A stretch of DNA of 64,000 bases. Origin: Acidobacteriota bacterium (lineage in GTDB: Bacteria; Acidobacteriota; Vicinamibacteria; Vicinamibacterales; JAKQTR01). Each line of letters starts with the position of its first letter. Position 1 is the stretch's first letter. Shown piece by piece: positions 4,672 through 47,073 of this stretch. The stretch lies in assembly GCA_026393755.1 (NCBI GenBank), contig JAPKZO010000040.1, positions 39,311 through 103,310 of the forward strand, written 5' to 3'. A program made the translations under genes and the position numbers. The notes below the pieces were generated by a model. The model worked only from the letters and a program-made list of their open reading frames with translations, made no database searches and was not told the DNA's origin.

Positions 4672-6489
4672 TCATCCGGCGGCGGCCGCTCGTGGCCCGC
4701 CAGGCGGACTTGGGGGCAGTGCGATGCGGACTTCGGTGCCGCGCGAGATCACACTCGACACGGCGATCGTGCCGCCGAGGCCGTCGACAATGCTGCGGGC
4801 GATCGCCAGCCCAAGCCCGGTGCCCGCCCGCCGGGTCGTAAAGTACGGTTCGAACACGTGCGCCAGCATCTTCGGTTCGATGCCGACGCCCTCGTCGCTC
4901 ACCGTCACGATCACGCCGCCGCCTTCGGCAGACTGGCTGCGGCACGTGATACCCGGTTCGGTGGCCACCGTCGCCGAGTCGGCCCGCGCCGCCTTGACGG
5001 CTTGAGCCGCATTCGACAGCACGTTGACAAGCACGGTGCGCAGGCGGTCGGCGTCGGTGATCACCGGCACCACGTCGGCAGAGAGCGCCAGCGTGATGCC
5101 GATGCCCGACTCTGCCGTCTCGACCGCGCGCACCGACTCCCGGCAGATCTCATTCGGGTCGGCCGTCTGCCACGTGAACGTGATGGGCTTGGCGTAGTCG
5201 AGCACCTCGCTCACAACGCGGTTCAGCCGCGCGATTTCGCCGTCGATGTCCTGGAGCGCCTCGCCAATCGATTCGGGACTCGCGCCGGGCTGACGCAACG
5301 ATCTGACGGCGGTCTTGATGATCATCAGCGGGTTGCGAATCTCGTGGGCCACCACGCTCGACAGTCGTCCGAGCGACGACAACCGCTCGCGCTGCGACGC
5401 TTCCCGCTCGAATCGCGCGATCGACTCGGTCAGCGTATTGAACGTCGACGCCAGCAGGCGCGCATCTTCATCTTCCCATGCCCCCGGCCGAGAGGGGATC
5501 CGTCTGGTGAGATCGCCTGTCGCGGCGACCTCTCGCATCACGGTGGTAATCGCCGCCAGCGGCCTCGTCACCGTTCGCGCGACGGCATAACTCAGGATCG
5601 TGGCCAGCAGCACCGCGACGATCACCATGATTCCAATGCCGGTCTGGATGGGCCCGAGAAATCGCAATTGCTCAGTCCGCGATCGCAGCACCACGACAAA
5701 CGGTCCGCGATCCGCGGTGGCGGCCGATCCGGATCCGATCGAGGCGGGCATGCCCGTGGCCACCGGCTGCGACAGCACCACGTATTCATCGACGCCCAAC
5801 GCCGTCCGCGAGATGCCGACCTGCCGCCGCGCCGTTTCAATCGACGTCCAGACCGCCGACGGCAGCGTCGCCGCCCGGATGCGCCCGTCCAGGCCAAAGG
5901 CGATGTCACTGCCGGTCAGATCCTTGAAATCCTCGGCGCGGGCCCTATCCATCAGGAACCCGAGGCTGAACGTGCCTGCCAGTTCGACCGGATCGCGCCC
6001 AACAGTGATCGGCACGGAAAGCACCTGGAGAATCCCCGCGGGATGGGACCAGAACGACACGCCGCTGATCCCGGTCAGTGCCGTGCGCACCGACGGCAGC
6101 GCGGTGACCGCCGCCGCGTCCAGGGCGACTGGCCCGGCGTTGGCCAGCACGCGGCCCGCGCGATCGGTGACCACCACCAGGCTCGATCGCGTCAGCATCT
6201 GCTGATACTCAACCGCCAGCGGCTGCACAGTCGGGGGATCGCCGGTGGCGGTTGCGGCTTTCAGCTTCGGCAGATCGGCGGTCAGGCGCGCCAGCAGCGT
6301 GAAACTCTCGGACAGCCCCTCGCTCTGCCTGCCGACGACAGCGCCGGCCTCGACGAGCCCGCGATGCAATCCGGCCTCGGCCTCAGCCGTCACGCGCCCG
6401 CTGACAAACCACGCGGTGACTCCGATGGCGACAACCACCAGCAGCGCGGCCGCGAGGAAGATCCGATTGGTGAGTGACGCCAGCAGCAT
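4672..6489 (-). CDS. sensor histidine kinase (periplasmic sensor, HAMP, HisKA, HATPase)
   Basis: Two TM segments bracket a ~260-aa domain. H-box SSVVAHEIRNPL. N/G boxes (VLSNAAQA, DEGVGI, GTGLGLAI). It ends 16 nt upstream of the NtrC-family gene. Confidence 0.9.
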   Translation of the reverse strand: MLLASLTNRIFLAAALLVVVAIGVTAWFVSGRVTAEAEAGLHRGLVEAGAVVGRQSEGLSESFTLLARLTADLPKLKAATATGDPPTVQPLAVEYQQMLTRSSLVVVTDRAGRVLANAGPVALDAAAVTALPSVRTALTGISGVSFWSHPAGILQVLSVPITVGRDPVELAGTFSLGFLMDRARAEDFKDLTGSDIAFGLDGRIRAATLPSAVWTSIETARRQVGISRTALGVDEYVVLSQPVATGMPASIGSGSAATADRGPFVVVLRSRTEQLRFLGPIQTGIGIMVIVAVLLATILSYAVARTVTRPLAAITTVMREVAATGDLTRRIPSRPGAWEDEDARLLASTFNTLTESIARFEREASQRERLSSLGRLSSVVAHEIRNPLMIIKTAVRSLRQPGASPESIGEALQDIDGEIARLNRVVSEVLDYAKPITFTWQTADPNEICRESVRAVETAESGIGITLALSADVVPVITDADRLRTVLVNVLSNAAQAVKAARADSATVATEPGITCRSQSAEGGGVIVTVSDEGVGIEPKMLAHVFEPYFTTRRAGTGLGLAIARSIVDGLGGTIAVSSVISRGTEVRIALPPSPPGGPRAAAAG

Positions 6490-6505: not shown

Positions 6506-7207
6506 TTACCGGATCACGAAATCGGCCACGACGTCGCCGCCCCGTTCGGGCACGACGACGGGGCGGGTCTCACGCACGTCACCCTCGTACCACACCGCCA
6601 GCGTGTAGGAACCCGGAGGCACGCGAGTGATGCTATAGCGTCCGGCCCCGTCGGTGACAGCGAAGAACCGATGGGCGAAGACGAGGATGAATGCGCGCAT
6701 ATGCGAGTGGATGTCGCAGAACACCTGCACGACGCCGGGCCGATCGAAACGGACGGCCTTCGACAGGCCCCGGGCATACCGGCCCAGGTCGAACGACTTG
6801 GTCTTCGACAGCGAGAACACGTTGTGGAACGTGAGGTCGGCGTTCGGAAAGTCGACGGTGGTCCCGACGGTGATCGCGAGCACGTGCGGAACAAACGTCT
6901 GGTCCAGCTGCTTCATCGTCGCCCGCACCGACTCGTCGGGTTCGAACGCGCCCCGAGGCGCGGTGTCGAGATAGAGGACCGCCGGCCTCAGTTCGGCAGG
7001 CCTGGCCGAGGCGGCGCCAAGCGAGGCCGCGTTGGGACGCTCTTCGATCGTCACGTGGCTCCGCCGCAGATCGACCCGGCCGCCAATCACACCATCCGCC
7101 GATGACACGCGCGCACCGCCCCACACGATCAGTACGGCGGCACCAGCCGCGATGACGGCGAACGCACGAACACGACGGGATGTCACCTGGCGCCACACGA
7201 CGGTCAT
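6506..7207 (-). CDS. cupredoxin-like plus carboxypeptidase-regulatory-like domain protein (often annotated methylamine-utilisation-like)
   Basis: Start moved to ATG 7207, which forms an ATGA overlap with the stop of the upstream gene and gives a TM/signal anchor (AFAVIAAGAAVLIVWGG). Motifs TVDFPNADLTFHNVFSLS and VFCDIHSHM are cupredoxin-like. C-terminal GRYSITRVPPGSYTLAVW is CarboxypepD_reg-like. Confidence 0.8.
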   Translation of the reverse strand: MTVVWRQVTSRRVRAFAVIAAGAAVLIVWGGARVSSADGVIGGRVDLRRSHVTIEERPNAASLGAASARPAELRPAVLYLDTAPRGAFEPDESVRATMKQLDQTFVPHVLAITVGTTVDFPNADLTFHNVFSLSKTKSFDLGRYARGLSKAVRFDRPGVVQVFCDIHSHMRAFILVFAHRFFAVTDGAGRYSITRVPPGSYTLAVWYEGDVRETRPVVVPERGGDVVADFVIR

Positions 7208-8454
7208 AACCAGAACGACAGTTGAACGCCGACCAGGGTGTCGCGGCGGATCTGCCCGCCGTCCCGCCAATGGCTCAACACGGACGACTTCAGCAGCAGC
7301 CCCCGGCGAATCGTGTATCCCAAGCCCAGTTCGACGCGCGAGACGTCCGCATCCCACGTCATGTCACCAGTCGACGTGCGGATCGACGAGAACCAGATGC
7401 GATCGGCGCGAGCCGCGACAAAGAGGCCTGGGCGCACGCGAACCCGCCCCTCCACGTAGCCTCCATGGGCGGCAAGCGGTTTCGTGATTGCCGGCGAGTC
7501 AATCGCCGGCACGGACCACTGGTTCACGACGAACTCACCGCGAACGAGCCACCGATCCCACGAGGTCTCGACATCGACGCCGACGGCCTGCTGGCGGCTG
7601 CTGGTGTCGCGAATGTCGGACCGCGTTGCGAGCACATCGCGGCCGAGCAGCGCGCCACGTGCGGCCGAGAGACCGACGCTCAGGGCGGGCAGGGGCCGCC
7701 AGGCGAGACGGCCTGCGAGCTGCCGACCGGCGTTGTCGTCTCTCACGACCGGATTCGAGAGCGTCCCAGCCGTGACGGCCACGGCCCCTTCGAGCGTCTG
7801 CGTACCGAATCGCGCCTGAATGCCGGTGTCCCAGCGCGACGCGGAGACAATCGGGAGCCCGCTATCCGCGTAGGCGTTTCCGACGGGATAGTGGACGGCC
7901 CATCCCCGGCCACGCATCCGGGCCAAGTCGTCGGCCGATGCAGGCACGGCATCGGCACGCATCGTCGTCAGATACTGGTAGACGAGCGGGACACCGATCA
8001 GCGGATTGTCCTGCGGATAATTGCGGCGCCCGTACGCGCCAAACACCGGAGGAATGCGGCCTGCCTGGATCGTCACCGCGCCGCTGTCGAGTGGATTGAG
8101 CCGGACGTACCACGCGTAGGGCCGTATCCCAAGACCGGTCTCGGCGCGCAGTTCCGCTAACAGGATCAGGCGGCGCGAGACCCGCGCTTCGACAGTCAGC
8201 CCGGCGTGCATCCGGCGCAGCGTGTCGGTTTCGTAATCGGCGTAGGTGAACCAGCCGGGATCGGCGCTGCCATAGGTGACCGATGCGTCACCGGCGACCA
8301 GCAGACGCCCGTCGAACAACGTCACTGGTTGCGTCGGCCAGGATTGAGCGAACGCGTCACCGGCGTGGACGCCGAGTGACGAGACGGCGACCAGCGCAGC
8401 CACTGCGAGCGGCCGAAGATAGCGCAACCGGAGCATGCGGGGTGCCTGATCCAT
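7204..8454 (-). CDS. putative outer-membrane beta-barrel/porin-like protein
   Basis: 416-aa ORF with a signal peptide (LAVAALVAVSSLGVHAGDAFAQ), alternating beta-strand-like sequence and C-terminal GVQLSFWL. It is the first gene of a 4-gene minus-strand unit with the cupredoxin-like, kinase and NtrC-family genes. Confidence 0.7.
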   Translation of the reverse strand: MDQAPRMLRLRYLRPLAVAALVAVSSLGVHAGDAFAQSWPTQPVTLFDGRLLVAGDASVTYGSADPGWFTYADYETDTLRRMHAGLTVEARVSRRLILLAELRAETGLGIRPYAWYVRLNPLDSGAVTIQAGRIPPVFGAYGRRNYPQDNPLIGVPLVYQYLTTMRADAVPASADDLARMRGRGWAVHYPVGNAYADSGLPIVSASRWDTGIQARFGTQTLEGAVAVTAGTLSNPVVRDDNAGRQLAGRLAWRPLPALSVGLSAARGALLGRDVLATRSDIRDTSSRQQAVGVDVETSWDRWLVRGEFVVNQWSVPAIDSPAITKPLAAHGGYVEGRVRVRPGLFVAARADRIWFSSIRTSTGDMTWDADVSRVELGLGYTIRRGLLLKSSVLSHWRDGGQIRRDTLVGVQLSFWL

Positions 8455-8475: not shown

Positions 8476-8590
8476 GAGATAACCACTCCGGAGTGATTAC
8501 CTGGAAGCGTTTGCCTGCCTGGGCTGGCGATAATCACTCCGGGATTGATTAACTCGGGCTGGCGATAATCACTCCGGGAGAGTGATTATC
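8476..8590. repeat. palindromic repeat cluster A (3 copies)
   Basis: Copies at 8481-8499 (AACCACTCCGGAGTGATTA), 8531-8552 and 8566-8589. The last two sit in a tandem 35-bp unit (8521-8555 / 8556-8590) whose first 24 nt are identical. The stop codon (8586-8588) of the upstream gene lies inside the last copy. Confidence 0.9.
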
Positions 8591-9467
8591 TGTTGATGAC
8601 CGCGCGGAGGGCGCGGATGTGGGCGGGGGTGGTGCCGCAGCATCCGCCGATGATCTGCACGCCCGCGGCCAGCAGTTCAGATGCCCTCGACGCCACTTCG
8701 TCCGGCGTCTCGGGGTACACGGTGGCGCCGTGGCTGATGACGGGCAGGCCCGCGTTGGCCTGGATCGCGATGGGCACGCCGGCGTGTTGTTTGAACGCGC
8801 GCGCAATCTCGACCATCGTTTCGATGCCGAAGCCGCAGTTTGATCCCACGATGTCCGCGCCGGCGGCCTGCAGTCCATTGGCGGCGGCGGGAATCGAGAC
8901 GCCCATCACCGTGAAGAACCCGCGGCGCGTCTTCTCGAAAGTCATGGTGGCGAGGATCGGGACGCGTGGCGCCGCCGCGCGGATGGCCGCGACGGCCATC
9001 GTGGCTTCGTCGAGATCGGTCATCGTCTCGACGCAGAACAGGTCGACGCCCGCGCCGGCCAGCGCCGCCGCCTGTCGCTCGAACGCCGCCGCCATCTGCG
9101 CCGGGTCGGTGTTGCCGAACGGCAGCCGCAGCCGACCGGTCGGCCCCATCGAGGCCGAGACGTAGGCGCGGTCTCCCACCGCCCGGCGAACGGCCGCGAC
9201 GGCCTGGACATTAATCTCCTCAGCGCGGTCCGCGAGAGCGAATGACTCCAGCTTGAGCGGCGATCCGCCGAACGTGTTGGTGGTGATGATCTCGGCGCCC
9301 GCCTCGAGATACAGGGCGGCAATCGCTTCAATCACGTCGGGGCGGTCGAGATTGAACAGTTCCGGCGGTTCGCCGGCCCTCAGTCCGCGCTCCATCAGCA
9401 ACGTGCCCCAGGCCCCGTCGCCGAGGATCACCTCACCCCGCGCCAGCCGTTCGCGAATGTCATCCAT
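8586..9467 (-). CDS. homocysteine-binding S-methyltransferase domain protein (MetH N-terminal module-like)
   Basis: 293 aa. ILGDGAWGT, TTNTFGG and the Zn-ligand cysteines VGSNCGFG and IIGGCCGTTPAHI are typical of the Hcy-binding (S-methyl_trans) domain. Confidence 0.9.
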   Translation of the reverse strand: MDDIRERLARGEVILGDGAWGTLLMERGLRAGEPPELFNLDRPDVIEAIAALYLEAGAEIITTNTFGGSPLKLESFALADRAEEINVQAVAAVRRAVGDRAYVSASMGPTGRLRLPFGNTDPAQMAAAFERQAAALAGAGVDLFCVETMTDLDEATMAVAAIRAAAPRVPILATMTFEKTRRGFFTVMGVSIPAAANGLQAAGADIVGSNCGFGIETMVEIARAFKQHAGVPIAIQANAGLPVISHGATVYPETPDEVASRASELLAAGVQIIGGCCGTTPAHIRALRAVINR

Positions 9468-9473
9468 GCCGCG

Positions 9474-10106
9474 CTACCCCACCAGCGCGCGAGCGCGATC
9501 GACGGCGCTGGCGGCGTCGAACGCGTACGCGTCGGCGCCAATCTCCCGCGCGAAGTCGGCCGACACGGGCGCCCCGCCCACCATGATCTTCACAGACGAT
9601 CGCAGGCCGCGCGACGTGACGAGATCGACGACGTCCTTCATCACGGGCATGGTGGTGGTCAGCAGCGCGGACATGCCGATGATGGACGCACCGTTGGCGA
9701 CGGCGGCATCCACGAATGCCGGCGCGTGGACGTCGGCGCCGAGGTCAACCACCTCGAAGCCGGCTCCCTTCAGCATGATGCCGACCAGGTTCTTGCCGAT
9801 GTCGTGCAGATCGCCGTGCACCGATCCGATGACCACGGTCCCTCTGGTCGGAATGTTCGCCTTGAGCAGCAGCGGCTTTACCAGATCCATGCCGGCGTAC
9901 ATGGCCTTGGCGGCCAGCAGCACGTCGGGCAGGAAGATATCCCTCACGCGGAACTTCTCGCCGACCACGTTCATGCCGCCAATCAGTCCGCGGTCCAGGA
10001 TACGGGCGGGCGGCACGCCCGCATCAATGGCCTCGCGGGTCAGGTCGCGCACGCGCTCGTCGTTGCCCAGTTCGAGATGTTCAGCAATCTGCGCCAGAAT
10101 GTCCAT
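9474..10106 (-). CDS. corrinoid (cobalamin-binding) protein with B12-binding cap and Rossmann domains
   Basis: Start set at ATG 10106 (MDILAQIAEHL), preceded by GGAGAG 7 nt upstream. DxHxxG motif GDLHDIGKN, SALLTTT, MVGGAPV. Confidence 0.9.
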   Translation of the reverse strand: MDILAQIAEHLELGNDERVRDLTREAIDAGVPPARILDRGLIGGMNVVGEKFRVRDIFLPDVLLAAKAMYAGMDLVKPLLLKANIPTRGTVVIGSVHGDLHDIGKNLVGIMLKGAGFEVVDLGADVHAPAFVDAAVANGASIIGMSALLTTTMPVMKDVVDLVTSRGLRSSVKIMVGGAPVSADFAREIGADAYAFDAASAVDRARALVG

Positions 10107-10122
10107 CTGATCTCTCCACTCA

Positions 10123-10815
10123 TCATCGCACCGATCGCATGCGCGGCAGGCATTGCCGCGTGGTGCAGTTCGCACAAAACGAGAACTCGGGGCGGAACCG
10201 GTGAATCGGCGCGGCGCCCGCCACCAGCACGCCCGATACCGACTTGAGCGGCTGCATCAGGCAGCTCTCGTTGAGGCTGATCCCAATCTCGCCCGGCCCC
10301 AGCCGCTCAAACAGCTTGCGCTGTGCGCTGATGTGCCAGCCGCAGTAGCCGGGGCTGTATCCCAGCACGGCGGTTCCCCCGTCCGACACGCGCTCGCGGT
10401 ATCTGGCCGCCAGCCGATCGGCCAACAGATCGGAGGAGACCGACGCGACGGCATCGAGCACATAGCCGCGCGCCATGTCGTCGGCGGCAAACAACTCGGT
10501 GATCCGCGCGCTCACCCGCGCTCCCAGGGTGGCCACAAACAGCGCCAGCGAATCCGCCCGCGGGTAGATCCGCTCGAGCGGCGTCTCGTGACTGTTGCGG
10601 CCTTCGCCCGCATACACCAGGGCGAACGCCTCGGCAGTCACATCATCGACGAGGCCCGTGGGTTCGGCCAGCCGCTCGAACTCCGCGACGGCCGCCTCGA
10701 TCAGCGCATCGGTGCGCGTCGAGACGGGTGCCGGCGATCCCATCCCCATCCGATCGAGGACGTCGCCGCGCGGCGGCATCGCCTCGCCGATCGAGAATAC
10801 GACACGCTCTCTCAC
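10123..10815 (-). CDS. methionine-synthase activation (AdoMet-binding reactivation) domain-like protein
   Basis: 230 aa with a GTG start overlapping the mttB-family stop (GTGA). GYSPGYCGWHISAQ resembles the RPAPGYPACPEH segment of the MetH activation domain. ISLNESCLMQPLKSVSGV also resembles that family. Confidence 0.75.
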   Translation of the reverse strand: MRERVVFSIGEAMPPRGDVLDRMGMGSPAPVSTRTDALIEAAVAEFERLAEPTGLVDDVTAEAFALVYAGEGRNSHETPLERIYPRADSLALFVATLGARVSARITELFAADDMARGYVLDAVASVSSDLLADRLAARYRERVSDGGTAVLGYSPGYCGWHISAQRKLFERLGPGEIGISLNESCLMQPLKSVSGVLVAGAAPIHRFRPEFSFCANCTTRQCLPRMRSVR

Positions 10816-12272
10816 CGTTCGCGCGCCGGCAAGGCCGTCATGCCAAAGCGCCTGGCCTCGCGCTCCATCACCGCGGTCAGATCGCGCCGCGCCTGCTCCG
10901 ATACGCGCGACGGCGTGTAGCCGGCCAGCAGACGCGACACCTCCCGCACGGCCCGATCGCGCAGGGTCAGTCCCCCGTCTTCGAGCCAGCGCGCCTGGTT
11001 CGCCCGGTCAATCACCGGGCCAGGAAACGCGATCTGCTCGCGCAAGTGCCGGCGCGTGTGCTTCGCAATCAGCAGATGCTTCTCGCGCAGCAGTTCCTGG
11101 AACAGCGGCAGCGACGGGAAGTCCTCCCTCGGCTCGATGCCTCTCAGCAGCCGCGCGGTCATGCCGCAGATCTCGTTGTCGACCACGAGCTTCTCGAGGC
11201 TCTGGCAGCTCTCGAAATCGAGCATCCCCGGACCCGAGATGTTGTTGATCCCGGACAGCGCGGCCAGCACCGCGCCAATCCCGGTTTCGAGCCCCGCCTG
11301 CGCATCGAGTTGCTTGGCGTCACTCAGCGAGATGTAGCCCTGTGTGGGCAGGCCCAGCGACTTTCCAATCTCGCTGTTGGCGCAGTCGATCATCATCGTC
11401 TCGATCGCGCCCATCGGCGTGGTCTCGTACCGCACGTCGAAGATGGCCGGCGACCCGCCATAGAGGACCGGATGTCCGGGACTGGTCAGCTGGCTGATCA
11501 CGATCCCGCTCAACGTCTCGGCGGTCTGCTGGATGAGGCTGCCGACCAGTGTCACCGGCGCCATGAACCCGGAGAGCGGCATCGAAATGAACTCCACCGG
11601 GATCGACCACCGGGCGCAGTCGACCAGGTTCTGGCTCGTCACGTCGCTCCACTTGATGGGTGCGGTCGGGCAGCAGGAGAACACGGCCAGCGGCTTGTCC
11701 TTGAGCGCCTGCGCGCTGCCCCGAACGGCCAGCAGCAGGTCCTTCATCACCTCGAACGCCTCGATGGTGAAGGCGCCCGTGACCACGGGCTTTTCGCCGT
11801 AGAGCAGGCTGAGATAGAGACGGTAGCTGTCTGAGATCCGCTCGTGCACATCGCCGGGAATCAGGGCGGTGCTCTGTGACGCAATGTTCGGCAGGCCGCT
11901 GACCACCTTGGCGTACTTCACATAGTCGTCCGTGGTCGGCTTGCGGCTGGTGACGCCGTCCTGGTCGAGAACCTTGATGGCCGCTGATCCGGGCGTGAAA
12001 TAGACGTTGCTGCCGGCGAAATCGTGCGTCTGATTGCCGACGGCGTCATACAGCTTGAACGAGTGCGCCACGGTGCTGAGCGCACGATCGAGAATGTCAG
12101 GCGTGAGGCGCGCGTGCCACGCCTCCAGATTCACATCCGCGCCGTGGCCGGCCAGCATTTCCAGGATAGGCTTGTTGTGGATTTCGACGCCCAGCTTGCA
12201 GAGGATGTCGCGCGCCTCGCCAACGATGCGCTGGATCAACGTGTCGTCCAACAATCTCAAACTCGGTCTCAT
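10812..12272 (-). CDS. MttB-superfamily (trimethylamine methyltransferase family, non-pyrrolysine) methyltransferase
   Basis: Start set at ATG 12272 because AAGGAG lies 5 nt upstream (the ORF-track start 12347 would overlap the upstream gene's 3' end and its stop-abutting hairpin). Full-length similarity by eye to MttB/MtgB-type proteins (ISGPGMLD, VVDNEICG, YETTPMGA). No in-frame TAG. Confidence 0.9.
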   Translation of the reverse strand: MRPSLRLLDDTLIQRIVGEARDILCKLGVEIHNKPILEMLAGHGADVNLEAWHARLTPDILDRALSTVAHSFKLYDAVGNQTHDFAGSNVYFTPGSAAIKVLDQDGVTSRKPTTDDYVKYAKVVSGLPNIASQSTALIPGDVHERISDSYRLYLSLLYGEKPVVTGAFTIEAFEVMKDLLLAVRGSAQALKDKPLAVFSCCPTAPIKWSDVTSQNLVDCARWSIPVEFISMPLSGFMAPVTLVGSLIQQTAETLSGIVISQLTSPGHPVLYGGSPAIFDVRYETTPMGAIETMMIDCANSEIGKSLGLPTQGYISLSDAKQLDAQAGLETGIGAVLAALSGINNISGPGMLDFESCQSLEKLVVDNEICGMTARLLRGIEPREDFPSLPLFQELLREKHLLIAKHTRRHLREQIAFPGPVIDRANQARWLEDGGLTLRDRAVREVSRLLAGYTPSRVSEQARRDLTAVMEREARRFGMTALPARER

Positions 12273-12287
12273 GAGTCTCCTTTTCGC

Positions 12288-12307
12288 GGGCGCAATGCAT
12301 TGCGCCC
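12288..12307 (-). other. intercistronic perfect 20-nt palindrome
   Basis: GGGCGCAATGCATTGCGCCC lies directly after the TAG of the aminotransferase gene and 15 nt before the mttB-family start. Its outer arms match the hairpin at 3247-3266. Confidence 0.8.
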
Positions 12308-13441
12308 CTACAAACCCCTCTGCTGCGGGAACAGTCCCCTGTGCCACAGGAACGCCTCGACGGCGGCCAGGAATTCCGTCAGGTACTCCTCGCTGGTGGC
12401 TCTGCCGAGATGCCCCACGCGGAAGATCTTGCCAGCCAGGTCTCCAAGCCCCCCCGAGATCGCGATGTGCCGCTCATCGAGCAGCCACCCACTGAATTCC
12501 GACACCGTGAACTCGGGCCGCGCGTGAAACGCCGTGACCATCGGCGCAGAGCACGACTCGGCCACGTACGGCACAAACCCCATCCTGATCATGCCTTCGC
12601 GGACGCGGCGTCCGGCGCGGGCGTACTTCGCGAGGTGCGCCGGCATCCCGACGCGGGCAATCGCCCGCAGGCTGGTGAGGACGGCGAGCAGCGTATTCGA
12701 CGACACGGTGACCGGCGTCGGGTGCCACGCGCCCCACTCCTTCGCGTACTGGCGCCATGTCCTGAGGTTCAGGTACCACCCATGGCCGGCGCCAGGGTGG
12801 TCGTCGACCATCTCCCACGCCCGCGGGCTGACACTGATGAAACCGAGGCCGGCCGGCCCTTCGAGGCACTTGTTCGACGCCGTCACGCACACATCAATGC
12901 CCCACGCATCGACCGGAAGCTCCACGCCGCCGAGCGACGAGACCGCATCGACGACCACAACGCGTCCGGCCGCGCGTGCCGCCGCCGCCAGTTCGCGGAT
13001 CGGGTTCAAGACGGTCGTGGAGGTCTCGTGATGCGTGATGGCCACGACTCTGGCGTCCGGGTGCGCGTCGCACACCAGGCGCAACGCAGCAGGATCGAGC
13101 GGCTGGCCAATCGGCGCCTTCAGCGGCACGACATTCAGCGCATGCGCTTCGGCGATATCGGTCAGCCGGTCGCCAAAGAACCCGTTCTGGCCGACGATGA
13201 TCGACTGGCCGATGGGGAGGAGGCTGCCGATCGCCATGTCGAGCGCGGCCGAGCCTGGCCCCGGCACGATGAACAGATCGGCGCCGGTCCCGAAGATCTG
13301 CTTCAGCAGCGTCTGGGCTTCGCCATACGTTGCCTTCCACACGGGGCCGTAGTGACGCTGGACCGGCTGCCCCATCGCGGCGAGCACCTCGTCGTCCACA
13401 TCGCCCGGCCCCGGAATAAAGAGCTTTACGTGATCCGTCAT
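12308..13441 (-). CDS. class-V pyridoxal-phosphate aminotransferase (alanine-glyoxylate/serine-pyruvate family)
   Basis: 377 aa. LFIPGPGDV N-terminus, TASNKCLEGPAGLG (PLP-lysine context), DAVSSLGG. Confidence 0.85.
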   Translation of the reverse strand: MTDHVKLFIPGPGDVDDEVLAAMGQPVQRHYGPVWKATYGEAQTLLKQIFGTGADLFIVPGPGSAALDMAIGSLLPIGQSIIVGQNGFFGDRLTDIAEAHALNVVPLKAPIGQPLDPAALRLVCDAHPDARVVAITHHETSTTVLNPIRELAAAARAAGRVVVVDAVSSLGGVELPVDAWGIDVCVTASNKCLEGPAGLGFISVSPRAWEMVDDHPGAGHGWYLNLRTWRQYAKEWGAWHPTPVTVSSNTLLAVLTSLRAIARVGMPAHLAKYARAGRRVREGMIRMGFVPYVAESCSAPMVTAFHARPEFTVSEFSGWLLDERHIAISGGLGDLAGKIFRVGHLGRATSEEYLTEFLAAVEAFLWHRGLFPQQRGL

Positions 13442-14934
13442 TGGAGTATCCCGGGGGCCATTTCAGCGGGTCTTGCCACAACGGCGAGGGCGCCGCCCTC
13501 GCCAACGATGTAGAACTCGTCGGCCTTGATTGCCAGGCCCACCGGGCGATCGAGGCCGGGGATCGCATGCGCCGCCACCACGGCGTGCGTGGCGAGGTCG
13601 ATCGTCAGCAGTGTGCTGTATGCCGCACTGATCGCGTACAGGCGGCCGCCATCGACAGTGGCCCCCGTCACGTAGTACTCGTCGAGCGAACGCTTGTCGC
13701 CGCTCAACCGCAATCCGGCCTCCCCGGCCAGCGCCGGCATGAACTCCTCCGACAGGGTCAGATCGCGCCGGTCGAAGCGGGAGATCACCAGGCGCTTGAC
13801 CTTCGCATTTGGCACCGTCACAGTGTAAATCGACCTGGTCGCCGGATCGAAGGCGAGCGACATCGTGTACATCATCCGCGCGCGCACCGTCCCCAGACGG
13901 GACCGCGACACCTCGTCGAACCGGTCGAATGATTCCAGGAAGAACCGGAAGTTCTTGTCCGCGTCCGCCTGGTCGTTCTCGCGCAGCACCACGTAGCTCT
14001 TGTTCTCGCCGACCGCCATTACGATCTTGCGCTCGAGGAACGCGGCTCCTGCGAATCGACCCAGGTCGATAGAGAACCCCGGGTCGACCACTGTGTACCG
14101 CGCGATCCGTCCGAGCGAGCCATCAGTAATGTAGACCCCTGATTGCGTGGTCACGAGGAATCGATTGGTGGCCTGCTCGTACGCCAGATCAGTGACCGAG
14201 CCCCGCAGGGGCAGGGCCAGCGTGCGCTGCTCGCGAATCGGCAGCACAGGGAGGCTGGCAAGCGGACCGGCTGCCGGATCGGCCGGCAGGCCCGCCACGC
14301 CCGGCTTCTCAATTGCCCATCGACCGCGCAGCGACGCGGGTGCGGGCGACCACTCCTCGAGCGACCACACCCAGTGCCTCGGGGCGAAGGAGAAGCGGAT
14401 CGGATCGCTCTGGCCCATGTACGGCGGCGGCCCGGTGCTGGCGAACGCCTGAACGATGTTGCCTGCCACGACCACGAGAAAGACGCTGAAGGCGAGCGAT
14501 TCGAGTGGGCGCAGCGTGCGCGGTTCGGCTGGCGTCTCCCCTTCTCTCAGCAGCATCAGCAGCAGGCCCATGGTGACCGTGCAGACCCAGAAGATAAAGA
14601 GCGCCCAGGTGTAGGTGTGGGCGCCGAGGATTTCCAGGCTGAAGCCCTGTCCCACGTCGCGCGCCGCGTGCATCCCCGTGTGCCGCAGCCCCATGAAGAT
14701 GCCCCACGCGCCGAGCAGCACCGACAGTCCGAGGTACTTCGGCCGCGGTCCGTAGCGGAGTACGAACAGCCCCGTCAGCGCGACCAGCACCATGCCCGTG
14801 CGCTGTTCCCAGCACATCACGCACGGCGAGTCGCCGTACACGAACCCGAACAGGAAGACCGCCGCGCCGATCGGGATGAGCGACAGCACGAGGACGGCCA
14901 GCGCCAGCATCGAGTAGATCGCGTTGCGTCTCAC
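13438..14934 (-). CDS. DsbB-like membrane domain fused to a large periplasmic beta-rich domain
   Basis: GTG start with GGGAGGA 7 nt upstream. N-terminal TM bundle with SPCVMCWEQRTG (DsbB/BdbC-type CxxC). A fifth TM is followed by ~320 aa of Cys-free repetitive beta-strand-like sequence. ATGA overlap with the downstream aminotransferase gene. Confidence 0.8.
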   Translation of the reverse strand: MRRNAIYSMLALAVLVLSLIPIGAAVFLFGFVYGDSPCVMCWEQRTGMVLVALTGLFVLRYGPRPKYLGLSVLLGAWGIFMGLRHTGMHAARDVGQGFSLEILGAHTYTWALFIFWVCTVTMGLLLMLLREGETPAEPRTLRPLESLAFSVFLVVVAGNIVQAFASTGPPPYMGQSDPIRFSFAPRHWVWSLEEWSPAPASLRGRWAIEKPGVAGLPADPAAGPLASLPVLPIREQRTLALPLRGSVTDLAYEQATNRFLVTTQSGVYITDGSLGRIARYTVVDPGFSIDLGRFAGAAFLERKIVMAVGENKSYVVLRENDQADADKNFRFFLESFDRFDEVSRSRLGTVRARMMYTMSLAFDPATRSIYTVTVPNAKVKRLVISRFDRRDLTLSEEFMPALAGEAGLRLSGDKRSLDEYYVTGATVDGGRLYAISAAYSTLLTIDLATHAVVAAHAIPGLDRPVGLAIKADEFYIVGEGGALAVVARPAEMAPGILQ

Positions 14935-15257: not shown

Positions 15258-15367
15258 TAATCACTCCCGGAGTGATTACAGGCGGGCTAATTACTCCCGG
15301 AGTGATTACGGTTTTGTAATTACTCCCGGAGTGATTGCAGGCGGGCTAATTACTCCGGGAGTGATTA
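15258..15367. repeat. palindromic repeat cluster B (4 copies, ~30-bp period)
   Basis: TAATCACTCCCGGAGTGATTA at 15258-15278. TAATTACTCCCGGAGTGATTA at 15288-15308. 15317-15336. 15347-15367 has the central base inverted. A 59-bp higher-order repeat is present (CAGGCGGGCTAATTACTCC occurs twice). The cluster lies in the divergent intergenic region. Confidence 0.95.
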
Positions 15368-15467: not shown

Positions 15468-17228
15468 ATGACACTGAAGAGGAAGTTGCTCGTTGTCGGG
15501 ATGACACTGGCAATGGCCGGCATGGCCGTCGCAGCCGCCGTCTCGGTTCGCGCCGCCGGAGAGTCCATCAACTACGGCGATCTCGCCAAGATCAAGGCCG
15601 AGGGCCTCCAGCGATCGCAGGTGATGGAGCTCTGCAGCTGGCTGTCGGATGTCTACGCGCCGCGCCTGACCGGTTCGCCGATGGCGCAGAAGGGCGCCGA
15701 CTGGACCGTCGCGAAGATGAAGGAGTTCGGCCTCACCAACGTGAAGATCGAGCCGTGGGTCAACCGGAACGGGTTTGAACGGGGATGGACCAACGACAAG
15801 TTCTACCTGGCATTCTCCTCGGCCGACGGGAAGTTCCCCATTCCCGGAACGCCAACCGCCTGGACGCCGGGCACCAAAGGACTGGTGACAGGCGGTGTCG
15901 TACTGGTCAGCGCCCCGAGGGAAGAGGAGTGGCTGGCATTCAAGGGCAAACTGCGTGGCAAGTGGATCCTGACCCAGGATGTGCCGGACGTCGCCGCCTA
16001 CTGGGATCCGATTGCGAAGCGGTATACGACCGAACAATTGCAGACCATGGAATTGCAGGCGGCGCCGGGGCCGGAGTTCGGCGTGACGCCTCCGGGCGGG
16101 GGCCGGGGAGGCCAGGTTGGCGCACCGGCGGCGGCGCAGCGCGGTGCGGCAGCCGCTCCCGCAGGCGCGCCAGCTAATGCCGCGCAGCCGGGGCCGATGC
16201 CTCGCAGCGGTCAGGCTGCAGCCGCAGCCCGCAACGCATTCTTCTTTGCCGAAGGTGCCCTCGGCACGATCTCGACGGCACCGCGCGGCCACGGCATCTA
16301 CACGATCGGCGGCAACCGCGCGGCCGATCCCGCGACCACGCTGCCGGCAATCGCGATCGATGCTGAGCACTACAACCGCATCGCCCGCATGCTGGCCAAG
16401 AATGTTGCGGTGACCATTGAGGCCGACATCACAAACACCTTCTATCCCAATCCGGCGGTCTTCAACATCGTCGGCGAGCTTCCGGGCACTGACAAGGCCG
16501 ACGAAATCGTGATGCTCGGGGGCCACTTCGACACGTGGCATGCGGCCACCGGCGCCACCGACGACAACGTGGGCGTGGCTGCGATGATGGAAGCGATGCG
16601 CATCCTGAAGGCCACCGGCGTCAAGCTGCGCCGCACGGTCCGCATCGGACTGTGGGAAGGCGAAGAGCAGGGCTTGCTCGGGTCGCGCGAGTACGTGTCG
16701 GCGCACTTCGCGAGCCGCGGAGCCGCACCGGCGGTCGCGGGCGCTCCTGCGGCCGGCGCCGCGCCAGCCGGCGGCGGGCGGGGCGGCCCGCTGGGCCCGC
16801 TCGAGTTCAAACCCGAGTACGACAAGTTCTCCGTCTACTTCAACATCGACAACGGCACCGGCGCCTTGCGCGGCGTGTATCTGCAGGGCAACGACGCGGT
16901 GGCGCCCATTTTCCGCGAGTGGATGGAGCCGTTCCGCGGGCTCGGCATGACGACGATCACGATTCGGAACACCGGCGGCACCGATCATCAGTCGTTTGAT
17001 GGCGTAGGGCTGCCAGGGTTCCAGTTCATCCAGGACGAGATCGAGTACAGCGCGATGACGCATCACACCAACCTGGATACGTACGAGCGGCTGCAGCCGA
17101 ACGATGTGACGAGGATGGCGACCATCGCCGCGGGCTTCGCGTATCTGGCAGCGAATCGCGACGAGAAGCTCCCGCGCAAGCCGATGCCGGCTCCGGGCCA
17201 GGGCGGCCGAGGACGGGGAGGACTGTAG
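15468..17228 (+). CDS. M28-family metallopeptidase (aminopeptidase), secreted
   Basis: AGGAGAG RBS and a signal peptide (VVGMTLAMAGMAVAAAVSVRA). Zn-ligand contexts LGGHFDTWHAATGATDDNVGVAAMMEA and GLWEGEEQGLLGS. Contains Ala/Gly/Pro-rich insertions. Confidence 0.9.
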   Translation: MTLKRKLLVVGMTLAMAGMAVAAAVSVRAAGESINYGDLAKIKAEGLQRSQVMELCSWLSDVYAPRLTGSPMAQKGADWTVAKMKEFGLTNVKIEPWVNRNGFERGWTNDKFYLAFSSADGKFPIPGTPTAWTPGTKGLVTGGVVLVSAPREEEWLAFKGKLRGKWILTQDVPDVAAYWDPIAKRYTTEQLQTMELQAAPGPEFGVTPPGGGRGGQVGAPAAAQRGAAAAPAGAPANAAQPGPMPRSGQAAAAARNAFFFAEGALGTISTAPRGHGIYTIGGNRAADPATTLPAIAIDAEHYNRIARMLAKNVAVTIEADITNTFYPNPAVFNIVGELPGTDKADEIVMLGGHFDTWHAATGATDDNVGVAAMMEAMRILKATGVKLRRTVRIGLWEGEEQGLLGSREYVSAHFASRGAAPAVAGAPAAGAAPAGGGRGGPLGPLEFKPEYDKFSVYFNIDNGTGALRGVYLQGNDAVAPIFREWMEPFRGLGMTTITIRNTGGTDHQSFDGVGLPGFQFIQDEIEYSAMTHHTNLDTYERLQPNDVTRMATIAAGFAYLAANRDEKLPRKPMPAPGQGGRGRGGL

Positions 17229-20472: not shown

Positions 20473-20548
20473 GGGCCGCTAGCTCAATTGGTAGAGCAGC
20501 AGACTCTTAATCTGCGGGTTCACGGTTCGATTCCGTGGCGGCTCACCA
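20473..20548 (+). tRNA. tRNA-Lys (anticodon CUU), CCA encoded
   Basis: The cloverleaf folds by hand. Acceptor GGGCCGC/GCGGCTC, D-stem GCTC/GAGC, anticodon stem GCAGA/TCTGC with loop CT-CTT-AA, T-arm CACGG-TTCGATT-CCGTG, discriminator A, CCA at 20546-20548. Confidence 0.95.
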
Positions 20549-28815: not shown

Positions 28816-30513
28816 ATGAATCCTGTGTCGAAGGCTCTGTCGGTACTATCAGGGCCCACTCTGTGGCTGCTGCTGACGCTGGCGGCGCTGACGGCCTTCG
28901 TCTACGCACCGGTCCGCCACTTCGACTTCGTGCTCCTTGACGATCCCGCGTACGTCACCGAGAACCCTCACGTGGCGCGCGGGCTGACGCGGGAGGGAAT
29001 CGCCTGGGCGTTCACTACGGGCGACGCGGCCAACTGGCACCCGGTGACGTGGCTGTCGCACATGCTCGACGTCCAGTTGTTCGGCGTCGCCGCGGGGCCG
29101 CATCACCTCACCAACGTGGTCCTGCACATCGCAAACACCCTGCTGCTGTTCGGCGTGCTTCTCACGCTGACCGGCGCCATGTGGCGGAGCGCGTTTGTCG
29201 CGGCCCTGTTCGCCGTCCATCCATTGCATGTCGAATCGGTCGCATGGATTGCCGAGCGCAAGGACGTGCTGAGTACGCTCTTCTGGATGCTCACGCTGTG
29301 GGCCTACGTCCGGTACGTGCGCGCGCCGGGTTCCCCGGCGGGAACGGCAGGCCCTTCCGCCGCCAGTCGCTCCCGGCGCGGGTTCTACCTGCTCATGCTC
29401 GCCTTCTTCGCCCTGGGCCTGATGGCGAAGCCGATGCTGGTGACGCTCCCGTTCGTGCTGCTGCTGCTCGACGTCTGGCCGCTTGAGCGGCTGGCCGTGA
29501 CGGCATCGGACGCCGGGCGGGCGAAGGCGGGCGGCCACGCGTCGGGGCGCGCGGCCGCCGGGTCCTCCAGGGCGGGTGCCGCGAAGGGCCGCGCGAACCG
29601 CCGATTGGCAGGGGCCAGAACGCCCCGGAGATCCGGCCGGCTGCGGGCCGCATGGCCGCTCGTCCGGGAGAAACTCCCGCTGTTCGTCATGGCGGTCGCG
29701 TCGAGCGCCGTCACCTTCGTCGTCCAGCAGCGCGGCGGAGCGGTCAGCACGCTCGAGACGTATCCCTTCGGCTTGCGGCTGCAGAACGCGCTGGTGTCGA
29801 TGGTTGCCTACCTCCGCGATACGCTGTGGCCCGAGGGCTTGACCGTGCTGTATGCGTTCCCCGACGCTATCCCTGGATGGCAGTTGGCCGGCGCGCTCGT
29901 GGTTCTGGGCGGCATCTCCTGGCTGGTGTACGCCCTGGCCCGCCAGCATCCGTACCTGCCGGTGGGATGGCTCTGGTACCTGGGGACATTGATGCCGGTC
30001 GTGGGTCTGGTACAGGTCGGTGTGCAGGCGAGGGCAGATCGCTACACGTACGTGCCGCTCATCGGGATCTTTGTCATGGTCGCCTGGGGTTCCGCCGCGA
30101 TGCTCGAACGCCTGCGTGGCGGACGCCGTGTCGCGATTGTCGCGGCAGTGGTGGTGATTGCCGGCTGTTCGGTGACGACGCGGGCACAAGTCGCGTACTG
30201 GAAGGACAACGTCACGCTCTTCACGCGGGCAACGATGCTCAGCTTGCACATGGACGAATTCGAGGCGCACATGTGGGTGGGGACGGCGGTCGGTGGCCAG
30301 GGGCGGTTGGACGAAGCGATGCGTCACTTCGAGGCGGCCGCGCGCCTGCGGCCGCAGTCCGACGCGGCGCATTGCAGCCTGGGCGTTTCGTTGGCAAAGT
30401 CGGGACGCGCAGCAGACGCGATGCGCGAATTCAACGAGGCGCTGCGTCTGAATCCTGACAATCAGATCGCGCGCCGTGCCGTCGACGGACTGAACCGCCG
30501 CAATCAATTCTGA
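28816..30513 (+). CDS. TMTC-like GT-C glycosyltransferase with C-terminal TPR repeats
   Basis: Start set at ATG 28816 (MNPVSKAL). LLDDPAYVTENP in the first loop. AVHPLHVESVAWIAERKDVLSTLFWML is the DUF1736-type motif of TMTC/PMT_2 proteins. About 10 TM helices and a basic Ala/Gly/Arg-rich insertion. TPR units at the C-terminus. Confidence 0.85.
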   Translation: MNPVSKALSVLSGPTLWLLLTLAALTAFVYAPVRHFDFVLLDDPAYVTENPHVARGLTREGIAWAFTTGDAANWHPVTWLSHMLDVQLFGVAAGPHHLTNVVLHIANTLLLFGVLLTLTGAMWRSAFVAALFAVHPLHVESVAWIAERKDVLSTLFWMLTLWAYVRYVRAPGSPAGTAGPSAASRSRRGFYLLMLAFFALGLMAKPMLVTLPFVLLLLDVWPLERLAVTASDAGRAKAGGHASGRAAAGSSRAGAAKGRANRRLAGARTPRRSGRLRAAWPLVREKLPLFVMAVASSAVTFVVQQRGGAVSTLETYPFGLRLQNALVSMVAYLRDTLWPEGLTVLYAFPDAIPGWQLAGALVVLGGISWLVYALARQHPYLPVGWLWYLGTLMPVVGLVQVGVQARADRYTYVPLIGIFVMVAWGSAAMLERLRGGRRVAIVAAVVVIAGCSVTTRAQVAYWKDNVTLFTRATMLSLHMDEFEAHMWVGTAVGGQGRLDEAMRHFEAAARLRPQSDAAHCSLGVSLAKSGRAADAMREFNEALRLNPDNQIARRAVDGLNRRNQF

Positions 30514-30525
30514 CCGGGCTACGCG

Positions 30526-31290: not shown

Positions 31291-31359
31291 GAACCGCGCC
31301 TTTTACGCTTGCTGAGCACTGATGACCGATCCGATGAAGATCAGGGGCCGACGTCGGAG

Positions 31360-31875: not shown

Positions 31876-31937
31876 AGGTTCTCCGACTCTATCCGCCAGC
31901 GGCGGGCCCTGTCAAAAGGGCGACAGCCCGGATGGGC

Positions 31938-31994
31938 AATTACTCCCGGAGTAATTGTTCCCGAACGTTCGGTAACAATCACTCCGGGAGTGAT
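31938..31994. repeat. palindromic repeat cluster C (composite 57-bp palindrome)
   Basis: AATTACTCC-C-GGAGTAATT (31938-31956, perfect). Inner perfect palindrome CCGAACGTTCGG (31961-31972). AATCACTCC-G-GGAGTGAT (31977-31994) is in inverted orientation. The cluster ends 5 nt before the stop of the gene at 32000. Confidence 0.95.
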
Positions 31995-31999
31995 CATTT

Positions 32000-41618: not shown

Positions 41619-42244
41619 GTCGCCTCAGGGCCTGTCAGGAACGGTCGCGCGGTGAATTCGTGCAGAGAATAGCACAAAGGCACCGGGGCGAATTCAATCA
41701 CTCCCGGAGTGATTACAATTCCGTAATTACTCCGGGATGATTGGACACTCAGCCGGGCGATCTGCTTCATGTGGTGGCGGGTGTGGACGAAGTGGAATCG
41801 GCGCCACTGCCCGGCGTCGAGCGGCCCGAGGATCGGATGATTGGCGAGTTTCGTCCGGCGTCCGAACCGCGCTTCGGCCGCCGCCGCCGCACCGTCCAGC
41901 TGCGCCAGGGCCGCCAGGGCATCGTCTCTGACGGTCGGGGCCGGGCTGGGTGACGGGAGGGCCACGGCAGGGGCCTGGGAGCCGGTCGGAAAGTGGCCGA
42001 GATCGACGACCACCCACGCGGCCACTCGCTCCCGCAGCGTAGGTCGCCTGCCCTTCGGCTTGTTCTGCCCCACGCATCGATTGAGGATATACGCCGTGCT
42101 GGTATACGTCCGAAGCAGATGGTCGAGAATCTGGGCGACGGACCAGCGGTCCGGCTGGCGACGACGCCCGATGTCGTCGGGCGCCAGATCAACGGTTGCA
42201 GCGCGCAGCGCGTCTGCGGTGGCCTGCAGGATGGGATGCAGCAC
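41525..42244 (-). CDS. DinB/DUF1569-like protein with an apparent 3' read-through extension
   Basis: Residues 1-165 look like a DinB-fold/DUF1569 protein (WSVAQILDHL, GQWRRFHFVHTRHHMKQI). The last ~75 codons run through repeat cluster D and 94 nt into the kinase gene. The biological C-terminus was probably near 41740. Confidence 0.65.
   Translation of the reverse strand: MLHPILQATADALRAATVDLAPDDIGRRRQPDRWSVAQILDHLLRTYTSTAYILNRCVGQNKPKGRRPTLRERVAAWVVVDLGHFPTGSQAPAVALPSPSPAPTVRDDALAALAQLDGAAAAAEARFGRRTKLANHPILGPLDAGQWRRFHFVHTRHHMKQIARLSVQSSRSNYGIVITPGVIEFAPVPLCYSLHEFTARPFLTGPEATWNPRLSARTVSSNGWEPVGWVRSTWRWTPV
41696..41742. repeat. palindromic repeat cluster D (2 copies)
   Basis: AATCACTCCCGGAGTGATTA at 41696-41715. 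TAATTACTCCGGGA-TGATT at 41724-41742, where one G is missing relative to the other 12 copies. Confidence 0.9.
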
Positions 42245-46991: not shown

Positions 46992-47014
46992 CCGGTCGGC
47001 TGCCGGGTCCGGAC

Positions 47015-47069
47015 GATCACTCCCGGAGTGATTGCGTCCGCCGGACAACCAATCACTCCGGGAGTGATC
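47015..47069. repeat. palindromic repeat cluster E (composite 55-bp palindrome)
   Basis: GATCACTCCCGGAGTGATTG (47015-47034) and its exact reverse complement CAATCACTCCGGGAGTGATC (47050-47069) flank an inner palindrome GTCCG-C-CGGAC (47036-47046). The element lies between convergent stops (46991 and 47074). Confidence 0.95.
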
Positions 47070-47073
47070 GTCT

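Follow-up and report, generated by a model that had tools for sequence, protein, structure and literature searches.

A palindromic repeat family of Acidobacteriota, probably cognate to a TIRYT-group lineage of REP-associated tyrosine transposases

The stretch of DNA analysed here (the window) comprises 64,000 nucleotides of an Acidobacteriota bacterium of the Vicinamibacterales (NCBI GenBank assembly GCA_026393755.1, contig JAPKZO010000040.1, positions 39,311 to 103,310 of the forward strand). Its GC content is 66%, and its genes were called by third-position GC content (GC3). A 533-bp divergent region separates a DsbB-like gene, 13438-14934 (-), from an M28 peptidase gene, 15468-17228 (+), and within this region positions 15258-15367 hold an array of four copies of the palindrome TAAT[C/T]ACTCC-[C/G]-GGAGTGATT[A/G]. 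The copies start 30, 29 and 30 bp apart, which bears out the spacing of about 30 bp noticed beforehand. Copies 3 and 4 repeat the doublet formed by copies 1 and 2, and because the spacer caggcgggc is present twice, the array is a 59-bp doublet duplicated in tandem. The original prediction, made from the sequence alone, had taken the array for one of five clusters of a dispersed repeat of the repetitive extragenic palindromic (REP) or bacterial interspersed mosaic element (BIME) type. Its reading of the surrounding genes, an M28 peptidase and corrinoid (B12-binding/MttB) genes, agreed with our Pfam annotation. Here, we describe this repeat family and the transposase gene with which it is associated in related genomes.

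In the window, the repeat (T)AAT[C/T]ACTCC-[C/G]-GGAGT[G/A]ATT(A) is present in 13 copies, grouped in five clusters (A to E). Ten copies were detected with ATYACTCCSGGAGTRAT at one mismatch or less, against none in 100 dinucleotide-preserving shuffles. The three remaining copies emerged from a half-site scan that allowed an altered centre and gave nothing in 20 shuffles: the centre is deleted at 8482-8497, carries a 2-nt insertion at 8568-8586, and a 1-nt deletion at 41726-41741. The 13 copies and five clusters of the prediction were thus recovered in full, each at its place. The centre base, in the 12 copies that retain one, is C in seven and G in five, so that both of the orientations described earlier do occur. 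In the frame ATC ACT CCC GGA GTG ATT the repeat encodes ITPGVI, and the ITPGVI and NHSGSD peptides of the spurious open reading frames (ORFs) are translations of the repeat, as had been supposed. A single palindrome is a unit of 19-23 bp with a stem of 9-10 bp, which folds as DNA at -6.6 kcal/mol (z -3.4), a hairpin of the kind expected of a REP.

To what extent is this repeat conserved in other genomes? A 17-mer scan of 185,579 species-representative genomes (596 Gb) returned at least 120 eight-kb blocks; by our own estimate, calculated for uniform base composition, about 280 matches would be expected by chance in 596 Gb. Among the matches listed, 52 of these blocks came from Acidobacteriota metagenome-assembled genomes (MAGs), several of which are labelled Vicinamibacterales, with many blocks per MAG; the other blocks were single matches in unrelated phyla. 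Outside the window, the core is thus present many times over in several Acidobacteriota/Vicinamibacterales MAGs. The coding regions of the window are 66-72% identical to those MAGs at the nucleotide level. The 19-nt core AATCACTCC-S-GGAGTGATT is conserved at 94-100% across 105 copies, and the frequency table of these copies replaces the 8-1-8 unit first proposed with a 9-1-9 unit, AATCACTCC-[C/G]-GGAGTGATT, extended by one or two variable outer base pairs. In the same 105 copies the first pair beyond the 9-bp core is paired in 48% of cases versus 30% expected, the second in 40% versus 37%, and the flanks further out are unconstrained. Part of this outer-pair signal could be explained by sub-families related by descent. 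To speak of long compensatory stem extensions would be an overstatement, as only the first outer pair exceeds expectation.

The copies are dispersed, 13 of them in 64 kb, and lie mostly outside genes, as is typical of REPs. ORFs called by GC3 cover 79% of the sequence, and 46 of the 53 classifiable clusters (window and related loci) are located outside them. Two loci (L053, 2217-2273, and L103, 5936-5992; loci are numbered with the prefix L) from MAGs of two Acidobacteriota species that are 87% identical over 5.8 kb have a common doublet at the same position, and copies therefore persist through speciation. The alignment of these two loci ends exactly at the doublet, and the sequences past it are unrelated; the repeat here marks either a break in synteny or the edge of an indel.

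About half of the clusters, in the window and related loci together, are doublets. In 40 adjacent pairs the start-to-start distance was between 22 and 73 bp, and the spacer sequences bear no relation to one another. Across loci the doublets are oriented CG in 18 cases, GC in 8 and direct in 14, which represents an excess of the inverted "C then G" arrangement (p = 0.014). Doublets fold, as DNA or RNA, into single long hairpins with z from -6 to -10, and the RNA hairpins reach -38 to -54 kcal/mol. Cluster C (DNA -19.7 kcal/mol, z -6.4; RNA -38.4, z -8.9), cluster E (DNA -29.8 kcal/mol, z -8.8; RNA about -51, z -8.5 to -9.8) and the last pair of cluster B, all of them C/G inverted doublets, have the structure of REP doublets forming hairpins (REPINs).

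A candidate for the cognate REP-associated tyrosine transposase (RAYT) was found in related genomes. In locus L046, an ORF at 4862-5518 (-) encodes a Y1/HUH protein of 219 aa and is bracketed by two copies of the palindrome. The protein matches Pfam Y1_Tnp (PF01797) with 33.3 bits (cut-off 23). A Pfam search of the whole 219-aa protein (E up to 0.001) gave Y1_Tnp only, and since it took in the entire length, no DnaA-like or helix-turn-helix (HTH) domain was found in the C-terminal half. The only PDB match is 4ER8, E. coli TnpA-REP. In the alignment to 4ER8, the NHWH sequence of the L046 protein matches the HMH motif, and Y122 falls on Y115 of that chain, which we take to be the catalytic residue. 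The L046 protein thus combines an HUH motif and a tyrosine in a Y1_Tnp fold. A protein search returned more than 7,400 homologues, with no identical multi-copy sets among them, and the 52 motif-selected blocks contain one transposase gene.

The association of this gene with the palindrome is recurrent. A metagenome scan with the L046 protein gave 80 loci, and in the three closest (90%, 82% and 60% identical) both flanks carry the palindrome or the variant ACCAGTCC-G-GGAGTGGT. Five further loci around close homologues (L201, L202, L206, L207 and L208) all have flanking copies. Overall, among homologues at least 58-60% identical, nine of nine independent loci carry the palindrome or a variant of it on both sides, exact in L046, L121, L122, L201 and L208 and co-varying in L123, L202, L206 and L207. 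Nine independent loci in relatives thus have the layout of a REPtron, a RAYT gene flanked by repeats. In several of them the TGA stop of the transposase gene is located inside the downstream repeat (GGAGTGAT). Directly observed are the repeat family and its extragenic location, its occurrence in a range of genomes, and the way in which it is tightly associated, and co-varies, with the transposase gene. The MAG that contains L201, CAVOHU, is also the source of many motif-selected blocks. In L201, two doublets 1.36 kb apart have the identical spacer cccctgccggaacccgg, which indicates local duplication. The surroundings of the transposase gene in L046 and L201 are rich in repeats and toxin-antitoxin-like genes: a HepT/MNT-like pair bracketed by repeat copies in L046 (5626-6321), PIN and DUF4143/AAA_14 genes in L201 (1413-3955).

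Further away in the clade, the repeat changes along with the protein. None of 77 homologues that are 41-51% identical carries the AATCACTCC-S-GGAGTGATT motif. In 60 of the 74 loci for which both flanks were available, the upstream and downstream flanks have at least a 12-mer in common, for which we estimate a chance of about 2% per locus (uniform base composition). Seventeen of the 60 common repeats are other perfect odd palindromes, for example AAAGGGTCC-A-GGACCCTTT and AAAGGGGAC-A-GTCCCCTTT. This common palindrome design suggests a shared mode of recognition across the clade. The 17 clade members concerned, in L126-L180, have A/T-rich outer arms, G/C-rich inner arms and a single central base, further examples being AAAAGGGTCC-A-GGACCCTTTT, AAAAGGTGCC-A-GGCACCTTTT and GAAAAGGGGAC-A-GTCCCCTTTTC; other members in L126-L180 have non-palindromic inverted repeats.

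To classify the transposase, we compared it with the TIRYTs published by Di Nocera et al. 2013 (PMC3733652, supplement 5). The L046 protein is a full-length homologue of R. baltica RB2408 (rba_2408; 38% identity, E = 3e-60) and is 37-39% identical to G. bemidjiensis 2474 (gbm_2474) and D. audaxviator 2153 (dau_2153). With a hidden Markov model (HMM) of the clade, the scores were 316 bits for rba_2408, 274 for dau_2153 and 266 for gbm_2474. The signatures NHWH, YQGR[FY]K (YQGRFK in our clade), YVERNA, a W-S-S tail and a C-terminal RPRGRPR are common to both sets. With full-length similarity, a size in the range of about 220-240 aa and the SS tail after the Y motif, the protein has the features of a TIRYT. 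TIRYTs correspond to subclass 2.1 of Quentin et al. 2018 (PMC6006769), which is Group 1 of Bertels et al.; the assignment of our protein to subclass 2.1 would follow by transitivity from PMC6006769, and not from that paper's HMMs.

Moderately abundant repeat families are known for TIRYTs, some of them self-complementary and found in dimers or clusters (Di Nocera et al., 2013, PMC3733652). As described for S. maltophilia ORF 1152, our transposase gene has inverted or self-complementary repeats on its flanks that are also present at other genomic sites, in dimers or clusters. The sequence of our repeat is new, and unlike most of the repeats flanking TIRYTs it has no GGGGWSAS motif, its flanks reading ..ACTCCSGGAGT...; that motif is found next to distant clade members, as GGGGACAG, in L156, L171, L178 and L180. 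A further difference is that the repeat is a short perfect odd palindrome of high local density, with 13 copies in 64 kb, whereas for this group the literature gives "moderately abundant" families, some 12 instances of the flanking 16-mer in Group 1, or "no REP" in subclass 2.1.

There is also a resemblance to the classical REP, BIME and REPIN systems of E. coli and Pseudomonas, which belong to Group 2/3 RAYTs. In both cases intergenic hairpin palindromes occur singly, as inverted doublets and in small tandem arrays, the cognate HUH/Y1 gene is flanked by repeats with which it co-varies, and some copies are kept across species. By contrast, our repeat lacks the 5' GT[AG]G guide tetranucleotide and any bulge or mismatch in the stem, its sole asymmetry being the central C/G. 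The transposase has 219 aa compared to 165 aa in E. coli, is 25% identical to E. coli RayT, and has Y---NA instead of Y---NP. The same phylum also harbours the class 3 TnpA-Y1 of Solibacter usitatus, again a Y1 transposase flanked by genome-abundant hairpin repeats, for which Quentin et al. (2018, PMC6006769) give some 600 "atypical secondary structures". Class 3 proteins differ from ours in having Y----Q (YV[VI]xEQ), NHVH and a CnGA hairpin foot, where we find YVERNA, NHWH and no foot motif. No account of a REP in Vicinamibacter was found in the literature searched. The kind of element is thus known; the repeat sequence, the Vicinamibacterales-like host lineage and the density are not described in that literature.

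Taken together, these findings lead us to propose, with a probability of roughly 85%, that the 13 palindromes are members of a family of REP-type repeats found in Acidobacteriota, at least in part Vicinamibacterales, and cognate to one RAYT lineage of the TIRYT group. The REP/BIME interpretation made at the outset is sustained by palindromes that are dispersed, mostly non-genic and often in doublets, by their presence in many genomes of the lineage, and by a cognate transposase in relatives. The mechanism would resemble that of E. coli TnpA-REP and of the insertion sequence (IS) family IS200/IS605, and catalysis and mobilisation by the transposase are inferred from homology to these systems. 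The repeat would form a hairpin in single-stranded DNA, and the transposase, usually encoded by one gene per genome, would act in trans, recognising the hairpin, cutting and rejoining. Single copies and doublets would in this way spread into intergenic spaces, where they would be tolerated chiefly just past stop codons. Since the repeat contains TAA and TGA, it can supply the stop codon itself. Doublets and short tandem arrays would arise locally. It may be speculated that the transcribed hairpins act secondarily as 3'-end stabilisers or as insulators between transcription units.

If the window is typical, its density of about one copy per 5 kb would correspond to roughly 1,000 copies per genome. 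It is tempting, at slightly less than even odds in our judgement, to go one step further: a RAYT of the TIRYT type (Group 1, subclass 2.1) might sustain a dense, vertically inherited, REPIN-like population in Vicinamibacterales-type Acidobacteriota and recognise its substrate without a 5' guide tetranucleotide. As the repeat is untagged and perfectly symmetric, the enzyme would have to cut without the guide tetranucleotide of E. coli TnpA-REP and IS608, and would perhaps recognise, on whichever strand, the conserved stem together with its CCSGG apex.

A number of observations weigh against assigning the palindromes to a RAYT-borne REP family. The original prediction had found no RAYT in the window, and searches of the 64 kb by tblastn and with an HMM of 81 clade members likewise detect none; for the window's own genome, the RAYT link would be that of its relatives. 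Homologues traced by cluster accessions, together with three Logan-only homologues, included none from SRR20698638, the run that also contains the window, and the same search gained three repeat-flanked loci. The missing RAYT can be answered, because a homologue of TnpA-REP flanked by the same palindrome exists in related genomes. The best and only NCBIfam match of the L046 protein, REP_Tyr_transpos (NF047646), scores 62.3 bits, below the cut-off of 80. In 105 copies oriented by the centre base, there is no GTAG, CGTC or other one-sided tag and the flanks are symmetric, which places the repeat outside the two classical REP superfamilies, GTAG- and CGTC-tagged, of Di Nocera et al. 2013. The orientation signal comes from one central base and its bias is modest. 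Cluster B lies between two gene starts, which is unusual for REPs. Comparison of all fetched loci revealed no orthologous site without the repeat and no target-site signature that would attest mobility. The count of 13 copies refers to the 64-kb window. Finally, published surveys give the subclass no REP, listed as "no" (PMC6006769), or low-copy flanking repeats, with abundant flanking 16-mers in Groups 2 and 3 only (Bertels et al., 2017, PMC5581495).

The first alternative to consider is that the transposase gene and its flanking palindromes constitute an autonomous IS200/IS605-like or "TIRtron" unit, the solo palindromes being footprints or derivatives resembling miniature inverted-repeat transposable elements (MITEs) and not a population that a domesticated single-copy gene maintains in trans. 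Group 1 is described as the most IS-like of the RAYT groups (Bertels et al., 2017, PMC5581495), and repeats do stand on both sides of the gene; in L121 these are one and the same 56-nt doublet in direct orientation. L121 (1177-2426) and L048 (5669-6921) contain the same neighbour gene, 83% identical, which is followed by a doublet and the transposase gene in L121 and by a single repeat and an unrelated gene in L048. From the same neighbour with a different sequel it follows that the transposase is present at that position in L121 and absent in L048. However, solo copies far outnumber genes (one gene in the 52 motif-selected blocks, none in the window), and the homologues differ between genomes instead of forming identical multi-copy sets. 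The Y motif is YVERNA and not the Y---Q of IS200, and no TnpB partner, or any neighbour of TnpB size, adjoins the transposase in the nine loci with flanks read. We consider an autonomous element improbable.

Still less probable, in our view, is that the palindromes are host RNA elements, 3' hairpins that stabilise mRNA or terminate transcription and spread and are kept by selection for this role, with an incidental link to the transposase. Three of the five clusters abut stop codons, the doublet RNA hairpins are very stable, and a promoter-like site follows just past doublet C. Termination is contradicted by the terminator scan, which none of the 13 copies passes because no stem is followed by a T-run. 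Selection for structure alone would not keep a 19-nt core at 94-100% where genes are about 70% identical. Clusters B and D are located upstream of gene starts, and an incidental link is hard to reconcile with a transposase association that recurs in nine independent loci. A 3'-hairpin function could nevertheless coexist with the REP explanation. The least probable alternative is that the palindromes serve as operators, bound cooperatively along arrays by dimers of an HTH regulator or of a nucleoid-associated protein; the original prediction had allowed for an HTH protein on copies three helical turns apart. This reading draws on the perfect, conserved dyad, the 29-30-bp period of the focal array and the binding of IHF and gyrase to E. 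coli REPs, and founders on the variable spacing and unrelated spacers of the 40 adjacent pairs, on neighbouring genes without a common functional theme, on sites mostly at gene 3' ends or between convergent genes, and on the lack of any regulator gene recurring beside them.

The individual copies in the window and the transposase loci with notable flanks are collected in Table 1.

Table 1. Repeat copies in the window, and flanking repeats and repeat-donated stop codons at transposase loci of related genomes.
Feature	Position or source	Strand	Description
Cluster A copy 1	8480..8499		TAACCACTCC-GGAGTGATTA; centre base deleted, one arm mismatch; 25 nt upstream of start of gene 7204-8454 (-)
Cluster A copy 2	8531..8551	-	TAATCACTCCGGGATTGATTA; G centre, one mismatch
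Cluster A copy 3	8566..8588	-	TAATCACTCCGGGAGAGTGATTA; centre with 2-nt insertion
Cluster B copy 1	15258..15278	+	TAATCACTCCCGGAGTGATTA; C centre
Cluster B copy 2	15288..15308	+	TAATTACTCCCGGAGTGATTA; C centre
Cluster B copy 3	15317..15337	+	TAATTACTCCCGGAGTGATTG; C centre
Cluster B copy 4	15347..15367	-	TAATTACTCCGGGAGTGATTA; G centre
Cluster C inverted doublet	31937..31996		C centre 31937-31957, G centre 31976-31996; palindromic spacer ccgaacgttcgg
Cluster D doublet	41695..41743		C centre 41695-41715; 41724-41743 with 1-nt deletion
Cluster E inverted doublet	47014..47070		C centre 47014-47034, G centre 47050-47070
L201	Repeat-rich MAG CAVOHU		Palindrome without mismatch 45 nt upstream and over the stop codon; 8 copies within 8.7 kb
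L208	Logan SRR11714509		Perfect copies
L202	NCBI assembly GCA_936415675.1		ACCACTCC..GGAGTGGT; symmetric double change, palindrome kept
L206, L207	Logan runs		Further variants
Repeat-donated stop, L201	4682-4684
Repeat-donated stop, L208	788-790
Repeat-donated stop, L207	near 1300
Repeat-donated stop, L046	4859-4861

The genes that adjoin the clusters (methyltransferase, DsbB-like, DsbD_N, TPR glycosyltransferase, kinase, DinB, dehydrogenase and histidine kinase) have no functional theme. Of the two positional claims made originally, the first, that all clusters are intergenic, is correct for A, B, C and E, while D is traversed by an ORF; the second, that most copies lie close to stop codons, is correct for A, C and E only, cluster B being placed between two gene starts. 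Cluster A is located between two co-directional genes, and its last copy gives the upstream gene its stop: the terminal TTA of copy 3 is the TAA (8586-8588) of the homocysteine S-methyltransferase gene 8586-9467 (-). Cluster C reaches to within 3 nt of the stop of gene 32000-34321 (-) and is upstream of a promoter-like site for gene 31360-31875 (-). This site, at 31886-31915 (-), is the best sigma-70-like match of the region (TTGACA/18 nt/TAGAGT, 10/12 positions) and falls between doublet C and the DsbD_N gene 31360-31875; its position after the doublet indicates that doublet C separates two transcription units. Cluster E is found between the convergent genes 45837-46991 (+) and 47074-50916 (-), 22 nt and 3 nt from their respective stops.

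Cluster D is situated just past a DinB_2 domain and 76 nt upstream of the start (41618) of a Ser/Thr kinase gene. The ORF 41525-42244 (-) encodes a complete DinB_2/DUF1569 domain that ends immediately before the doublet. It then crosses both copies (..QIARLSVQSSRSNYGIVITPGVIEF..), gaining about 75 extra residues and overlapping the start of the kinase gene, because the 1-nt deletion in 41724-41743 removes the in-frame TAA of the intact repeat. Either the protein has a real extension at its C terminus, or the readthrough reflects an error in sequencing.

Rfam gave no family at gathering score over any of the five clusters. The sole match to the focal array was mir-559, at chance level (E = 0.19), and neither a cobalamin riboswitch nor any other known RNA was found there. 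Elsewhere in the window, Rfam identified a tRNA gene at 20473-20545 (+) (RF00005, 67 bits), in the least GC-rich part (62% GC, 18-22 kb). The corrinoid operon next to cluster A, genes 8586-12347 (-), encodes homocysteine S-methyltransferase, B12-binding, Met_synt_B12 activation and MttB-family methyltransferase domains according to Pfam. The MttB protein is NCBI MCX6546170.1, and the lack of an in-frame stop in its ORF makes it an MttB of the non-pyrrolysine kind. A PYLIS_3 match at 11228-11327 (-), with 38.3 bits versus a gathering score of 38, probably reflects coding-sequence homology.

The repeat copies could also have been artefacts of assembly, a possibility raised with the original prediction. 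This is countered by an independent Logan short-read contig, SRR20698638_8577 (L204), which is 100% identical to positions 29526-31966 of the window. The contig stops 11 nt past the first copy of cluster C, and an end at this doublet is what a repeat that interrupts assembly would be expected to give. The repeats thus fragment short-read assemblies of the source organism.

Our findings extend REP/RAYT biology from the well-studied Gammaproteobacteria to the Acidobacteriota, and to the largest and least understood group of RAYTs. For workers on Acidobacteriota genomes, who together with those on REPs and RAYTs are the main audience, the REP interpretation accounts for spurious ORFs (ITPGVI/NHSGSD), for some stop codons, for one apparent C-terminal readthrough and for contig breaks in assemblies of soil bacteria. 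The motif could also help to mark the lineage and offer anchor points when Vicinamibacterales MAGs are compared. For the RAYT family, the 219-aa transposase and the 19-nt perfect palindrome without a guide tag provide a testable protein-DNA pair.

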